In this document: one piece after another, positions 1,049 to 55,234 of the stretch
Layout of the letters: each line of letters opens with the position of its first letter
Position numbering within the stretch: position 1 is the first letter of the stretch
Source: a virus
Taxonomy: Duplodnaviria; Caudoviricetes
Virus record (IMG/VR): IMGVR_UViG_3300020438_000050
Location: 1-55,830 of that record
Length of the DNA stretch: 55,830 nucleotides
Strand: one strand, 5' to 3'
Translations under genes and position numbers: made by a program
Notes under the pieces: model-generated
The model's input: the letters and a program-made list of their open reading frames with translations, nothing else
What the model was told of the DNA's origin: nothing
Database searches by the model: none

Positions 1049-1052
1049 ATTG

Positions 1053-1060
1053 TATTTATC
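1053..1060 (-). promoter_or_regulatory. T4-late-like promoter GATAAATA, leaderless spacing
   Basis: Minus strand GATAAATA-caat-ATG; the motif recurs before many structural genes. Confidence 0.65.
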
Positions 1061-2640: not shown

Positions 2641-2645
2641 AAAAC

Positions 2646-2653
2646 TATTTATA
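2646..2653 (-). promoter_or_regulatory. T4 late promoter consensus TATAAATA, 5 nt before terL ATG
   Basis: Exact T4 gp55-type -10 sequence on the minus strand: TATAAATA-gtttt-ATG. Confidence 0.75.
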
Positions 2654-6772: not shown

Positions 6773-6810
6773 ACTAATATTTATCCTCACTTATTAGGTG
6801 CGTATATAAT

Positions 6811-12744: not shown

Positions 12745-12760
12745 TATTTATCGATAAATA
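12745..12760. promoter_or_regulatory. Palindromic back-to-back late promoters TATTTATCGATAAATA
   Basis: Perfect 16-bp palindrome made of two outward-facing GATAAATA boxes, between divergent genes. Confidence 0.8.
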
Positions 12761-12765
12761 TATAT

Positions 12766-15817: not shown

Positions 15818-16957
15818 ATGAAAGTATTAGTTCTTGGTGACATAATCATCGACAAGTATATCTACGGTACTAGTTCACGCATTAGTCCCGAAGCCCCCGT
15901 TCCTGTAATTACATACAAGAGCGAAGTTGAAACACTTGGAGGGGCAGGACTTGTATATGAGAATCTTAAAAGTTTAGGAGTTGATGTTACATTATTTAAA
16001 ACAAATCAACCACGTAGTATTAAGACACGTATAATATGTGACGGTCATTACATAACCCGTATAGACAACGATAAACATGCAAATTCAAACGTAGTTTTAG
16101 ATGAAGTATTATGTAGTGATTTTTCTAAGTATGATTATGTAGTACTAAGTGATTATAACAAAGGTGTTCTAGATGAATCTTTAAAAATTATAGAACATAT
16201 TAATAAATTTGGTTGTAAAATTATTGTAGACCCTAAAGAACATGCAACTCAGTACAAAAACGCATGGTTAGTAAAACCTAATAATAGTGAATTTACTAAG
16301 TTTGGATTTAGTGATTGGAATGGCAATATCATTACTACTAATGCCAGTGATAATGTAGTTGCTTGTATAGACGATGTTGATTATAATCTTCCTGTTGCAC
16401 AAGTAGAAGTATCAGATGTTACAGGAGCAGGCGATTGTTTCTTAGCAGCATTTGTATATGGCTTAACTAAAAGTTATGATTATATGAAATGTTTAGAGAT
16501 TGCTATAAAAGGTTCTAGATGTGCAGTACAGCACGTAGGCACATATACACTAGCGCACAATGATATTGAAGAGCGTGTAATTTTTACAAATGGTGTGTTT
16601 GATATTATGCACACAGGACATTTTAATTTACTAAAAGAAGCACGTAGTTTAGGCGATAGACTTGTTGTGGGTATAAACTCAGATGCAAGTGTAAAACGTC
16701 TAAAGGGCAATAATCGCCCAGTAAACAACATAAAAAAACGTGTTGAACAAATATCTATATTACCATGGGTAGACGAAGTTCACGTTTTTGAACAAGATAC
16801 TCCTTATGAGTTAATTAAACATATAGCACCTAACTTAATTGTAAAAGGTGGTGACTATACTGTTGAAACCGTAGTAGGACATAATTTAGCTGATGTACAT
16901 ATTATACCTACAGTGGATGGATATTCAACAACACAGATTATAGAGAACAGCAAATGA
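15818..16957 (+). CDS. hldE: Bifunctional heptose-7-phosphate kinase / heptose-1-phosphate nucleotidyltransferase
   Basis: RISPEAPVPV, LSDYNKG, DVTGAGD (PfkB kinase); TNGVFDIMHTGH, GINSDASVKRLKG, KGGDY, STTQII (nucleotidyltransferase). Confidence 0.93.
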   Translation: MKVLVLGDIIIDKYIYGTSSRISPEAPVPVITYKSEVETLGGAGLVYENLKSLGVDVTLFKTNQPRSIKTRIICDGHYITRIDNDKHANSNVVLDEVLCSDFSKYDYVVLSDYNKGVLDESLKIIEHINKFGCKIIVDPKEHATQYKNAWLVKPNNSEFTKFGFSDWNGNIITTNASDNVVACIDDVDYNLPVAQVEVSDVTGAGDCFLAAFVYGLTKSYDYMKCLEIAIKGSRCAVQHVGTYTLAHNDIEERVIFTNGVFDIMHTGHFNLLKEARSLGDRLVVGINSDASVKRLKGNNRPVNNIKKRVEQISILPWVDEVHVFEQDTPYELIKHIAPNLIVKGGDYTVETVVGHNLADVHIIPTVDGYSTTQIIENSK

Positions 16958-28905: not shown

Positions 28906-29505
28906 ATGGATAGCGACTTTAAACAACATATTATGTATATGGAAATACCGATACACTTTTGGGAATTTTCTATGTCTGACACTGAAGAATATACATTAGA
29001 AGAACTGCACAACAATATCGAAAATATTATTAGAAATGGTGGTGATGTGCGTAAACGAGAAACTAATGTAAAAGCTCATATGACTAAGTGGAATATGTTA
29101 GAACATAAAGAATTTGCAGCTATATCAAACAAAGCAACAAAAACTGTAGAAGATTGGCATAGTGAGTACACAGATTTACAACTTAAAACCTTCCAAACAA
29201 CATGCTGGGGTTCTATATATAATAAAGGTGACTATAGTGAAAGACATGCACATGTTCCTGCATTATATAGTTGGGTTTATTATGCAAAAGTAGATGACAA
29301 CTCAGCCCCAATATACTTTCATAACAAACCAGGTATGTATTATAAACCTACTAGCGGTACTGGAATTATTTTTCCAGGATGGTTAGAACACGAAGTACAA
29401 TCTCATGAAGGTGATAATGATAGAGTTATTGTTGTAGGAAACATTGAGGGTACTGGTAGTGTTACATACCCTCAGCGTGAATTTCTTAATGTTAAGGATT
29501 TTTAA
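28906..29505 (+). CDS. 2OG-Fe(II) oxygenase (TIGR02466-like)
   Basis: HAH...SWVYY...FPGWLEHEV...RVIVVGN. Confidence 0.8.
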   Translation: MDSDFKQHIMYMEIPIHFWEFSMSDTEEYTLEELHNNIENIIRNGGDVRKRETNVKAHMTKWNMLEHKEFAAISNKATKTVEDWHSEYTDLQLKTFQTTCWGSIYNKGDYSERHAHVPALYSWVYYAKVDDNSAPIYFHNKPGMYYKPTSGTGIIFPGWLEHEVQSHEGDNDRVIVVGNIEGTGSVTYPQREFLNVKDF

Positions 29506-31312
29506 TCTTAACTAATTTTTGTACTTCTGGCAAATACAAATATTCAATCTTACTCGCAAACAATGTCCTACACGCATCATCTAATGTTTCTACTAAGGGT
29601 TCTCCTCCTAAGTTAAAACTTGTATTAAATATAATAGGACATCCTGTTCTAGATTTAAATTCATTAATTAGATCGTAGTAATGTTCATTTTCCTGTCTGT
29701 TAACAGTTTGTATGCGACATGTTCCGTCCACGTGTATAATAGCAGGAATTTTATCCTCTACACCAGGTTTACAATTTACTGCATACATCATATGAGGGCT
29801 TGATTTCATTCCACGTAAATCAAACCAGTCATGTGCATCTTCTTCAAGTATTGTGCCAGCAAACGGTCTAAAATATTCTCGATTTTTAATACCATTAACA
29901 TGATCCTTGCCATCTGGATCTGTAGGATCATAAAGTATACTACGATTGCCTAACGCTCGAGGTCCTGCTTCAGAACGACCTTGGAAAATACTCACAATAT
30001 TTCTATCAGTAATTAAATCAACAACATCATTATTTGTTGCATCGATTACTTCTGCGCCATATTTTTCTGCTACATCTTCTAAGTCTTTATAGTTATATTC
30101 AAACCCGGTGTACATTCTATCTTGTGTATAGTCAATTGTTTTCCATTCGCCTTCGTTAAATTGCGCTTGGAAGTCATGCCATACTAGTAGAGCTGCACCT
30201 ATGCTTGTTCCTGCATCGCTGCTTATAGGTTCAACATATAAATTAATATCGTGCTTCTTTAATTCTTCTAAGTAGAAATAATTTGCAACGCAATTTAATG
30301 CATAACCCCCACTTAGTACAACATTTTTATTTCCGGTAAGTTCAACTGCTTTAAGTATTAGGTCTAATGCTTTTTGCTGTGTGACTTTTTGTACTGCATA
30401 TGCTACATCTCTTCTATTCTGTAGCGTTGTAACATCTTCTGCACTGTCATCACCTAAAAATTCATTATATCCTTTGTTAATATAGGCTCCGTTTGGATAA
30501 GTTGCTTGTATTAAATTTCTATTAGATAAGTTGCATCCTTCGTCCCATATAGGCGGCACATCCGGATTATCTTTTCCGTAAGGAGCAAGACCCATTGTTT
30601 TACCTGCCTCAATAAAGTGCCAACCACAGTAGTATGTTGCAGCTTCATATGATTTTACAATTCCAGCATGTGTACTTAATACTACTTCTGCATCGCCATC
30701 TTCTTCAAACCATAGTTCAGTACTTACGTTATCTGATCTATAAATAGAATTTTGATAATAATCGTTAAAATTCCCTCCAGCATTTTTATAAAGTGTTTTA
30801 ACATTATTTGGATAGCTCATATCAAATACAGTTTCTGTTTCCCATACCCTATACTTGTTATTAACAGCCGCAACTTCAAAACCCGAGCCAGCGCCGTCAA
30901 TTACTACTGCTGTTGCACTATCAAATCCACTGCGATAAAATGCACATGCGGCATGTAATTTATGATGTATATTTCCTAGATCAATACATTGAGGATGCTT
31001 ATTTTGTTCATGTGGAATATTTGCAATTAAACCTAATTTTCTAGCGAGTGAATAATAAATGTCTTCTCCTGTATAATCTACTGTTGGGCAAAATTGTGCT
31101 CTAGTAGCTGTATGGGCATATACAAGATAATCTAGATGATCAGTAAACTCAAGTATTTTGGTCATTCCTGCAAAAGGTGTTGCATCATACTTTAACCTAG
31201 TTAATCTTTCTTCTTCTATAATAAAAACAATCTCGCCGTTTTTAAGTAGACACAAAGAGCCGTTATGTCCTCGTGTTATTCCAGCAATCCAAACATCTTT
31301 ATTTTTTTCCAT
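29492..31312 (-). CDS. O-carbamoyltransferase (CmcH/NodU/TobZ family)
   Basis: EEERLTRLK, HHKLHA, GKTMGLAPYG, SGGYALNCVAN, DAGTSIGAA, GPRALGNRSIL, KNREYFRPFA, HVDGTCRIQTV, NTSFNLGGEPLV. Confidence 0.93.
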   Translation of the reverse strand: MEKNKDVWIAGITRGHNGSLCLLKNGEIVFIIEEERLTRLKYDATPFAGMTKILEFTDHLDYLVYAHTATRAQFCPTVDYTGEDIYYSLARKLGLIANIPHEQNKHPQCIDLGNIHHKLHAACAFYRSGFDSATAVVIDGAGSGFEVAAVNNKYRVWETETVFDMSYPNNVKTLYKNAGGNFNDYYQNSIYRSDNVSTELWFEEDGDAEVVLSTHAGIVKSYEAATYYCGWHFIEAGKTMGLAPYGKDNPDVPPIWDEGCNLSNRNLIQATYPNGAYINKGYNEFLGDDSAEDVTTLQNRRDVAYAVQKVTQQKALDLILKAVELTGNKNVVLSGGYALNCVANYFYLEELKKHDINLYVEPISSDAGTSIGAALLVWHDFQAQFNEGEWKTIDYTQDRMYTGFEYNYKDLEDVAEKYGAEVIDATNNDVVDLITDRNIVSIFQGRSEAGPRALGNRSILYDPTDPDGKDHVNGIKNREYFRPFAGTILEEDAHDWFDLRGMKSSPHMMYAVNCKPGVEDKIPAIIHVDGTCRIQTVNRQENEHYYDLINEFKSRTGCPIIFNTSFNLGGEPLVETLDDACRTLFASKIEYLYLPEVQKLVKIKNP

Positions 31313-49087: not shown

Positions 49088-49197
49088 CTCTTCTCCTCAA
49101 TACGGGGATCCTGTCCCTCTAGCCGAATTCTCACCCTTACGGTTCTTTGCTGGCTAACCACAGTCTGACCCTGCAACGGTTGGTCGACTATTGCATT
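49088..49197 (-). ncRNA. Candidate structured (pseudoknotted) 5' leader
   Basis: GC-enriched 110 nt between GATAAATA (49203-49210) and ATG 49087, with several hand-found helices. Confidence 0.5.
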
Positions 49198-49245
49198 AAT
49201 AATATTTATCAAAAATTAAGTATTATGGGGTGTTAGGTTATAATT

Positions 49246-53640: not shown

Positions 53641-53663
53641 TATGGGGAGAACAAACTCCCCAT
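53641..53663 (-). terminator. Hairpin after 53674-54135 (terminator or stabiliser)
   Basis: TATGGGGAG / CTCCCCATA 9-bp inverted repeat. Confidence 0.6.
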
Positions 53664-53673
53664 AACTATATGC

Positions 53674-54135
53674 TTATGCGTCTTCTGTGAAGTCTGTATC
53701 GTCTGCACCGACTAATGTGTTGTCGTCGCCTGCTTCTTCAACTTGTGCTGCGCCATCTGCTGTAGATGTACTAAAGTTCCATGCTACACTTTTTCCGTCA
53801 AATGCGTTTGCACCTGTTCCACTTGGAGCAGATAAAGTTGCTTTACGTCCAGCAATTTTACTTACTGTGTATGTTTCACCGTCATCCATTTTGAATGCAA
53901 TAGCCATTTCACCTTCTGCTAGTGCTGCTGGCAATTTGCCAGTTGTTAGCGTACAAGTAAATAATCCAGCTGTGCCAATTTCTTCACATACGAATCTTTT
54001 TGATCCTTTTTGCTTTACAATATAACCTTCTTTGACTGCTGTGCCGTTGTGAAAGTTTACTTTAATTTCGTTGCCGCCGGCTGTAGGTCCTACGCCTGCT
54101 TTTCCGAATAATCTTTTGTTTAGTGGTCTTCCCAT
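53674..54135 (-). CDS. Hypothetical, probably abundant virion protein
   Basis: 153 aa, SD AGGAG, own late promoter (54230-54237) and 3' hairpin. Confidence 0.65.
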   Translation of the reverse strand: MGRPLNKRLFGKAGVGPTAGGNEIKVNFHNGTAVKEGYIVKQKGSKRFVCEEIGTAGLFTCTLTTGKLPAALAEGEMAIAFKMDDGETYTVSKIAGRKATLSAPSGTGANAFDGKSVAWNFSTSTADGAAQVEEAGDDNTLVGADDTDFTEDA

Positions 54136-54149
54136 TTTGTTTCTCCTAT

Positions 54150-54225
54150 TTTAGAAGTCCGATGCACGTTCTAGGTGCTACGCTGTGGTGCAGCATAAGT
54201 CCGCCTTGCGGCACACTATCTGACA
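54150..54225 (-). ncRNA. Candidate four-way-junction plus pseudoknot 5' leader
   Basis: Four contiguous helices found by hand, one with a GCAA tetraloop; loop TAGAA is complementary to the downstream TTCTA. Confidence 0.55.
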
Positions 54226-54243
54226 ATAGTATTTATCACAAAC

Positions 54244-54277
54244 AAAAAAAGCCCGACACAATTAAGTATCGAGCTTT
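54244..54277 (-). terminator. Rho-independent terminator
   Basis: Minus strand AAAGCTCGA...TCGGGCTTT running into a T7 tract. Confidence 0.7.
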
Positions 54278-54490
54278 TAATAATAATGTGATAGGTTGGA
54301 ATTTGAGAATACCAACAACCTCCTAGTAGCTCTCGCCATATTCGGAGGAGCCTAGCATCGGATAGTTACTTCCAAAAACATATCTTTGTATCTCTACACT
54401 CATATGTTGCCACTACAGCTACTAGCCAAGTTGTGTCACTACGCAACACCGTTCCTTGCACTATCTAACTTAGGCCGTCGCCTAACTTAT
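54250..54490 (-). ncRNA. Candidate stand-alone structured RNA (~240 nt)
   Basis: Region without a long ORF, bounded by a sigma70-like promoter and a terminator, containing many helices. Confidence 0.55.
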
Positions 54491-54496
54491 GTATTA

Positions 54497-54524
54497 ACTA
54501 TAACATCATTACAAACAATGTCAA
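54497..54524 (-). promoter_or_regulatory. Sigma70-like promoter
   Basis: TTGACA-16 nt-TATAGT with TGn extended -10; the -35 box overlaps the upstream TGA stop. Confidence 0.65.
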
Positions 54525-55234
54525 CCACTTTTTTTACTTTTTAATCCTTTTTTCCAACCGTTAGTAATAGATTGTGGAAATATTTTTATAGGATGTTGTC
54601 TATCATCTGCATTAATATCGTCTGACTTAGAAAATTTAGACGTTGATATTCTTTCTAAGCACACCGCTTGGGGAGGTTCGCAAACATAAAGCGGAAGTGC
54701 AGTCGGAACCATCATCATTAAATATTGATCTAACCCTTTCTCTATTCCAGTACGTAATGTATCATTCCATAACCACTCAGCAGATTGAGGAGTAATTGCA
54801 TAAGCATGACATCCAATAGATCTTTTTATACGCACAAGATCACTTGCCGGTGCTGGCGGATTGTAGTCTTCTATATTTTTTACACGATGACCAAATGTAA
54901 CCACTGACATATTAGGAATATGTATATCTTTTACATTACCTTTGACAATAGCATCGTGTTCTAGTATAATGCAGGGTTTGCCAATTTCAATAATACGTTT
55001 CCAACACTTAATATGAGATGCATGAGCACAGCAATTTCCCATCCTATTCACATATGTCTTTTGTTTTTTTGCTCCTACTGCCTTAAAAGCTTCTCTAGGT
55101 TGTAAAAATTCTATAGCTTCCATATATTCATATTCAAGGTTTTGATCATCACAAGACCTTGCACACATATCTGCATACTCGACGGATATAGGAACCTGTA
55201 GCCTACGTATAATAATAGCTCTATCTATTTTCAT
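54521..55234 (-). CDS. Glycosyltransferase family 25-like
   Basis: CAHASHIKCWKRII...IILEHDA...GCHAYAITPQSA...LDQYL. Confidence 0.75.
   Translation of the reverse strand: MKIDRAIIIRRLQVPISVEYADMCARSCDDQNLEYEYMEAIEFLQPREAFKAVGAKKQKTYVNRMGNCCAHASHIKCWKRIIEIGKPCIILEHDAIVKGNVKDIHIPNMSVVTFGHRVKNIEDYNPPAPASDLVRIKRSIGCHAYAITPQSAEWLWNDTLRTGIEKGLDQYLMMMVPTALPLYVCEPPQAVCLERISTSKFSKSDDINADDRQHPIKIFPQSITNGWKKGLKSKKSG

Follow-up and report, generated by a model that had tools for sequence, protein, structure and literature searches.

The structured RNA that lies on the minus strand directly before a 153-aa gene in the window, by which we mean the whole 55,830-nt stretch of viral DNA analysed here, is a member of the known freshwater-2 family (Rfam RF02980), with nothing essential different in it. 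On balance we favour the reading that it forms the entire 5' UTR of a late mRNA in a T4-related phage, acting both as a stabilising and initiation leader and as a specific protein-recognition site. When the whole window was scanned with the covariance models of Rfam 15, RF02980 was the single gathering-level match, at 54133..54215 (-) with 65 bits and an E value of 1.1e-7 against a gathering score of 49.9 bits, and the alignment takes in all 84 model positions (1-84 of 84). The preliminary description could not match the element to a known riboswitch or ribozyme; because a described Rfam family does match, that novelty is removed, and the RNA itself, being already catalogued, is no discovery.

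The RF02980 model consists of three consecutive hairpins followed by AGGAG, an A-rich spacer and AUG, and contains neither a closing helix P1 nor a pseudoknot. The window copy has the same three hairpins, the same conserved nucleotides (UUAUGC, GCGUA and UAGAAC in both the Rfam consensus and the window) and the same AGGAG-spacer-AUG arrangement at the 3' end. The letters given in the preliminary description are present on the minus strand as described, and the features to which we refer are as follows, all on the minus strand.

54229..54237 (-): putative T4-type late-promoter box GATAAATAC, a conserved box at a fixed distance.
54218..54224 (-): GTCAGAT, the 5' arm of P1 and the inferred 5' end of the mRNA; the predicted fold pairs this arm with 54163..54157.
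54198..54217 (-): P2 hairpin with a GCAA loop, the first hairpin of the RF02980 model; 8 positions, one of them G.G.
54179..54197 (-): P3 hairpin TATGCTG/CAGCGTA, the second hairpin of the RF02980 model.
54164..54178 (-): P4 hairpin with the conserved loop CTAGAAC, marked by covariation; UAGAAC is conserved in the Rfam consensus.
54157..54163 (-): ATCGGAC, the 3' arm of P1, forming 6 of 7 pairs with GTCAGAT and one A.G.
54152..54156 (-): TTCTA, the proposed pseudoknot partner, not conserved.
54133..54147 (-): Shine-Dalgarno (SD) sequence AGGAG (54147..54143), A-rich spacer and ATG (54135), the end of the RF02980 model.
53674..54135 (-): the 153-aa gene of the MGRP[LIV] family, the ORF directly after the RNA.
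53641..53664 (-): stable nine-pair GC-rich hairpin after the stop codon and before the 319-aa gene, seen in the sequence and by folding.

The freshwater-2 motif originates from the study of Weinberg et al. 2017 (PMC5737381), whose main text has 0 occurrences of 'freshwater', so that the description of the motif must be in its supplement. In the full-text literature, 'freshwater-2' returned unrelated environmental uses only. RF02980 is listed in Rfam as type Cis-reg, in agreement with the earlier placement of the element in the 5' UTR of the 153-aa gene, where it is cis-acting by position. The motif reportedly comes from aquatic metagenomes with no classified organism, possibly from phages, and precedes genes of unknown function; this setting (upstream of an unknown-function gene, in aquatic and possibly phage DNA) fits both the window and its homologues. 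What our analysis adds is context, namely a putative late promoter, a T4-related and probably jumbo phage, a gene family and a conserved operon, of which a prior mention in the original supplement is possible. An orphan Rfam motif would thereby gain a setting: in T4-related marine phages it would form the whole leader of a late transcript, and it is linked to a single, widespread protein family.

A search with a pattern for the conserved core yielded at least 120 further stretches carrying the RNA. Altogether, we counted 200 instances of the RNA across 201 loci, 118 of them distinct, and the window was aligned with 114 distinct leaders to give an alignment of 115 rows. Every row except the window was collected with, or matches, the strict core pattern, so the invariance of the core is partly by construction. 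The RF02980 consensus, which is independent of that pattern, has the same conserved nucleotides, and of 20 loci reached solely via the protein, 19 exceed the RF02980 cut-off and the remaining one scores 49.5.

The hairpins named P2, P3 and P4 in the preliminary description turned out to be the three hairpins of the RF02980 model, and the covariation check on the leaders of MGRP genes found support for all three in the 115 distinct sequences. In P4, all four pairs vary on both sides, 94% of the cells are paired, and 26 U.G pairs occur. In P3, 100% of the cells are paired; the pair between alignment columns 84 and 97 is UA in 77 sequences, GC in 30 and AU in 8, while the remaining P3 pairs are fixed by the core search pattern. 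P2 lies in a gappy region and differs in length between homologues, with 71% of its cells paired and its inner pairs covarying. For the structure as a whole, the covariation score was 0.192 versus 0.058 in shuffled alignments, with 0 of 500 shuffles reaching the observed value, and 80% of the cells were paired versus 27.6-45.1% when the partners were slid. An all-against-all scan of the alignment columns placed the strongest mutual-information pairs exclusively in P2-P4, those of P4 at the top, and gave no other clear Watson-Crick signal for tertiary pairs outside these hairpins. The 126-nt stretch in the window has a folding energy of -34.6 kcal/mol (z = -2.56), which 2 of 200 shuffled sequences matched. 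Since the invariant U.G of P3 and the U.G pairs of P4 would be A.C on the other strand, the RNA is the minus-strand transcript. We also considered a pairing between ACCCA in the P3 loop and AUGGG at the start region, and rejected it: the start region stays unchanged in sequences whose loop has no C (L150, L165, L176), and the two sites thus do not covary.

The closing helix P1, as proposed earlier, holds in the window, where the resulting four-way junction is thermodynamically plausible; its comparative support is modest, and the helix is not universal. When folding starts at the inferred +1 position, 91 of 114 leaders have their first three nucleotides paired. In the alignment, the outer pairs of P1 are nearly invariant (G-C in 80/96, U-A in 86/96, C-G in 84/96, A-U in 90/103 and U-A in 83/100 sequences), and because they almost never vary they neither support nor refute the pairing. 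The two middle positions are unpaired in 86/97 and 69/99 sequences. A GGAC-like 3' arm is present in 87 of the 115 leaders and absent from the other 28. A GAC in the P3 loop is found in 11 of these 28 arm-less leaders and in 2 of the 87 others (Fisher 1.7e-6, uncorrected for relatedness), and the 5' GUC may thus pair with a different partner in this class; 17 of the 28 have no obvious substitute partner. Across 60 distinct combinations of 5' end and linker, cognate P1 duplexes had a mean energy of -4.68 kcal/mol versus -4.33 +/- 0.16 kcal/mol for permuted ones, 25 of 2000 permutations being as low as the cognate set (again uncorrected for relatedness). Variants in which the mismatch is turned into a pair also occur, with GUCUAAU/GUUGGAC in L140, GUCC/GGAC in L145, and CAGAGCC/GGCUCUG, with seven pairs, in the class of L150. 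The existence of P1 is thus plausible, and the picture of a four-way junction may be right for most members. The motif should be experimentally testable, since it offers a defined 5' end, a candidate protein partner and natural variants with and without P1.

Downstream of the helices, the SD sequence lies 3-17 nt 3' of the last helix in the homologues and is predicted to be more than 50% unpaired in 91 of 114 of them. Unlike in most homologues, the SD of the window is predicted to be largely paired, with an unpaired probability of 0.29, and in the minimum-energy fold of the window CUUC pairs with the GGAG of the SD rather than with the P4 loop. A hairpin with an anti-SD segment (CUNCU) was considered as well and set aside, being predicted in the window alone and having no conserved signal in the covariation scan.

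Upstream of the RNA, GATAAATA is a putative T4-type late-promoter box, as judged from its sequence and position. The box, in the form [ACGT][ACT]TAAATA[ACGT], is found in 114 of the 115 leaders, and GTC follows 4 nt 3' of it in 95 of these 114. The window has 17 NATAAATAN sites, 15 of which share the strand of nearly all the genes; most lie 6-28 nt upstream of an ORF start. By number alone, ATAAATAC does not exceed chance in the window (7 versus 6.43 expected), and it is therefore the placement of the boxes that is informative. PMC2984593 gives NATAAATA as the late promoter of T4-like cyanophages and TATAAATA as that of T4. The sites in the window fit what is expected of a late promoter, with a TATAAATA-like box at about -10, no -35 element, and recurrence before late genes. 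Additionally, T4 gp55, taken as the gene from the annotated T4 record, matches ORFs in three of five related large RNA-carrying contigs with 33-36% identity and E values of 4.5e-7 to 5.1e-6; these gp55-like ORFs sit in the three largest contigs, and none was found in the two smaller fragments, which are estimated to be 29-30% complete.

If the spacing of T4 applies, transcription would begin at the G of GUC, which lies 5 nt downstream of the 8-nt GATAAATA and 4 nt downstream of the 9-mer. Because the GATAAATA box stands at a fixed distance, the RNA would be the complete 5' UTR of a late mRNA, about 89 nt long, with the ATG 95 nt downstream of the last A of the box. Within the window, long leaders follow two boxes only, the freshwater-2 box and the box at 49210 (116 nt). 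The second long leader, 49088..49210 (-) before a 1111-aa gene, gave no gathering-level Rfam match, and its fold resembles that of shuffled sequences (z = -0.62). Most of the other boxes in the window have 18-28 nt to the start, SD included. Four boxes, at 1052..1060, 2645..2653 and 6777..6785 (-) and at 12753..12761 (+), have an ATG 5-6 nt downstream and would give leaderless or near-leaderless late mRNAs.

Contigs from marine RNA libraries cover the MGRP gene in three of four studies (X1, X3, X5), although such contigs show neither ends nor strand and DNA carry-over is possible; those of X3 and X5 also extend into the leader. The contigs of X1, X3 and X5 do not cover about 54208-54227, which proves nothing, these being contigs only.

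The phage itself is an uncultured, T4-related marine myovirus. The window encodes a large terminase, a tail sheath, a tube and a sheath stabiliser, and its terminase is closest to those of jumbo myoviruses (Pseudomonas phage PA5oct, 53%; Sinorhizobium phage Phosso, 49%). As CheckV rates the 55.8-kb record 17% complete, the genome would be about 330 kb, and the phage is probably jumbo. Among 50,697 records of isolated phages, neither the leader by blastn nor the 153-aa protein by tblastn had a match. The RNA core had a single match among 185,579 bacterial and archaeal species genomes, in contig NZHE01000016.1 (L202) of a metagenome-assembled genome (MAG) labelled 'Rickettsiales bacterium MED657'. 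On this contig a gp23-like capsid gene, a prohead protease and a scaffold gene precede freshwater-2, the MGRP gene and a homologue of the 319-aa gene, with the MGRP gene one gene after the capsid gene. Given the capsid, protease and scaffold genes, L202 is phage DNA binned into the MAG, whose label is at most a weak lead to the host.

The ORF after the RNA begins with MGRP[LIV] in 116 of the 118 distinct instances, the other two being cut by contig ends. Gene order is conserved downstream: of 109 regions, 85 carry a homologue of the 319-aa gene on the strand of the RNA, 46 the 121-aa gene and 36 the 186-aa gene. Upstream, the genes vary, and the GT25-like gene of the window recurs in 1 of 117 regions. 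In the sequences at hand, the RNA always precedes one protein family, which heads a conserved block of structural genes. Profile searches of five contigs of 101-201 kb gave one or two copies of the RNA per large contig, and all six copies abut an MGRP gene. Three further MGRP paralogues, in G001, G003 and G005, sit a short way downstream of such a gene and lack an RNA copy; in L145 (348..1331), both tandem MGRP paralogues have a box and an RNA each. The window contains a single MGRP gene. After that gene comes the stable hairpin listed above; 3' tails that fold at -10 kcal/mol or below were found in 80 of 103 distinct homologues. The hairpin is a putative terminator at most, and suggests that the MGRP gene is often bracketed as its own unit too.

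The MGRP protein is widespread and nameless. Its relatives number 337 confirmed in IMG/VR contigs, of which 80 were fetched; a large protein collection has 1332 at E <= 0.001, and apart from one uninformative MGnify code these are named only 'hypothetical protein'. PHROGs has no family for the 153-aa protein, and no Pfam family passes, the MoaF N-terminal domain reaching 17.9 bits against a cut-off of 23.3. The AlphaFold (AF2) model, computed from 42 diverse homologues, is all-beta with small beta-barrels (pLDDT 85, pTM 0.80); its confidence is low at the C-terminus. At that C-terminus (53674..53730, -), one subfamily has an acidic tail with phenylalanine, such as DDTDFTEDA, and others end in LTAI or IDVI. 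Foldseek against the PDB returned no match at E <= 0.001. VIA-align gave Z scores of at most 4.6 to small Tudor/KOW/SH3-like barrels, a common arrangement, and these scores are below the level of relationship. Ten matches at E <= 0.001 were found in BFVD, none with a functional name (seven 'Uncharacterized protein' and three nameless), two of them from the jumbo Agrobacterium phage Atu_ph07. In the ESM Atlas the best scores were 0.88, and a 'head fibre' cluster reached 0.83, too low to count. The residues M1, G2, R3, P4, Q42 and K93 are invariant and K7 is nearly so. Since codons 2-4 vary synonymously (AGA/CGT/CGC, CCA/CCT/CCG), the MGRP N-terminus is evidently conserved as protein and not as RNA. 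From the late promoter and the position at the head of the structural block, we infer that the MGRP protein is a virion protein.

Taken in this setting, the mechanism that we favour would run as follows. A late mRNA initiated from GATAAATA would open the structural block, its first gene encoding the MGRP[LIV] beta-barrel protein. The first three nucleotides would pair with the downstream GAC to form P1, so that the 5' end would be buried in a compact four-helix fold, and AGGAG with the A-rich spacer would stay mostly single-stranded. Such a leader would shield an abundant late message from 5'-end-dependent decay and would support efficient initiation. A trans-acting protein that tunes translation would find its specific site in the invariant parts, namely the P3 stem, the UAGAAC loop and the ACUUAUGC junction. 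The hairpin in the 5' UTR of ompA is a 5'-terminal stabiliser structure of a bacterial mRNA. Like such stabilisers, freshwater-2 would place structure at most one or two nucleotides from the 5' end and leave the downstream ribosome-binding site free. In contrast, stabilisers of the ompA type need just a 5' stem. The loops and stems of freshwater-2 are invariant in sequence, which mere stabilisation would not require and which points to specific recognition. Because this invariance exceeds what stability needs, we suggest that the leader is recognised by a conserved trans-acting factor, which may be the gene's own product.

If it were the gene's own product, the leader would be an autogenous translational operator, an alternative that we regard as rather unlikely. 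Excess MGRP protein would then bind the leader and block ribosome entry beside P4 and P1, the candidate contact parts being the basic N-terminus GRPxNK[RK] and a conserved IxxQ[KR]Gxx[KR]F patch on the small beta-barrel. The leaders of T4 gp32 and of ribosomal proteins work in this manner, with the gene's own product blocking ribosome entry, and the targets in T4 gene 32, gene 43 and regA, together with ribosomal-protein leaders, are autogenous translational operators. Freshwater-2 resembles these in being a structured 5' leader that is tied to one gene and adjoins the SD; it differs in that it has no sequence or structural similarity to those operators and in that its gene appears to be late and structural, not one of replication. 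The strict tie of the RNA to a single gene family, even though the body of the protein has diverged to about 20-30% identity, speaks for such an operator, as do the RNA copies belonging to each tandem paralogue in L145, the invariant residues of the protein and an SD near enough to the last helix for steric occlusion. Barrels of the SH3/Tudor/KOW type are common in nucleic-acid binders, a weak point at the Z scores given above, and the fold matches fall below the level of relationship. The conserved N-terminus could equally well anchor a structural protein in the virion, the variable body of that protein being exposed, and in three of the five large contigs a second paralogue lies downstream with no RNA of its own. 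We therefore hold with little confidence that freshwater-2 and the MGRP N-terminus and beta-barrel constitute an unrecognised autoregulatory pair, with P1 being part of the operator. If this were true, the RNA-protein pair would set the dose of a protein of the virion surface or fibre module in widespread uncultured marine and freshwater T4-related (jumbo) phages.

We judge a riboswitch to be less probable still. In such a case the P1-P4 junction would bind a small molecule, and ligand-dependent stabilisation of P1 and P4 beside the SD would modulate how the late operon is translated. A riboswitch would suit the architecture seen here, a compact junction of several helices, about 75 nt long, whose junction and loop nucleotides are invariant, and relatives carry glutamine aptamers (RF01739) nearby, in 6 of 20 loci. 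Yet the downstream genes are structural, not metabolic or transport-related, and the gene context suggests no ligand. Moreover, there is no terminator between the RNA and the ATG, no conserved anti-SD platform is found, the SD is predicted to be open in 91 of 114 leaders, and P1, usually the switching helix, is missing from the 28 leaders that have no GGAC-like arm.

The preliminary description's exact model, a four-way junction locked before the SD by pairing of the P4-loop UAGAA with UUCUA, is highly improbable: the complementarity is present in the window and in the minority of homologues with a ATCGGACTTCTA-type linker, but of 115 linkers only 12 contain TTCTA and only 17 any 4-mer of GTTCTA, most sequences have TACTT or TACTA where the invariant P4 loop would need its partner, the short-linker class has no partner at all, two of the five pairs fail in 65/85 and 81/96 of the sequences with letters at these positions, and the columns have no covariation. 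As judged from the alignment, the pseudoknot is thus not a feature of the freshwater-2 family.

We also looked at the RNAs in the neighbourhood of the favoured late leader. A manA-like RNA (RF01745) lies at 54285..54485 (-), 70 nt upstream of freshwater-2, scoring 45 bits, below the cut-off of 55.2; in the relative L022, manA is above the cut-off with 61.1 bits. In the window this RNA is preceded by a sigma-70-like promoter, TTGACA-16-TATAGT with TG (54497..54524, -), and followed by a terminator-like 13-pair hairpin with a T-run (54247..54278, -), so that 54247..54524 (-) looks like a free-standing RNA gene, not a leader. RNA-library contigs cover 54228..54468 and 54283..54534, and those of X5 and X8 cover the manA-like region separately. 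According to two reports, manA RNA is a motif of marine T4-like phages (PMC2864571), and manA RNAs self-assemble into decamers and a 60-mer cage (2026 preprint, 10.64898/2026.07.01.735769). The manA RNA is thus like freshwater-2 in being a motif of marine T4-like phages, and unlike the freshwater-2 leader in forming a separate unit with its own promoter-like site and terminator-like hairpin.

The region upstream of freshwater-2 is a hotspot of RNA genes in related phages. The window has none of the RF01739 aptamers or tRNAs that occur there in relatives. The glutamine riboswitch aptamers lie upstream, at about 800-1000, in L005, L007, L010, L020, L022 and L050, and upstream tRNAs, at 1156-1381, number one in L008 and three in L020. 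On the protein-coding side, the structural region of the window holds sugar- or LPS-related auxiliary genes at 15818..16957 (+), 29492..31312 (-) and 54521..55234 (-), which are heptose kinase/adenylyltransferase-like, Nol-like carbamoyltransferase and family-25 glycosyltransferase-like genes.
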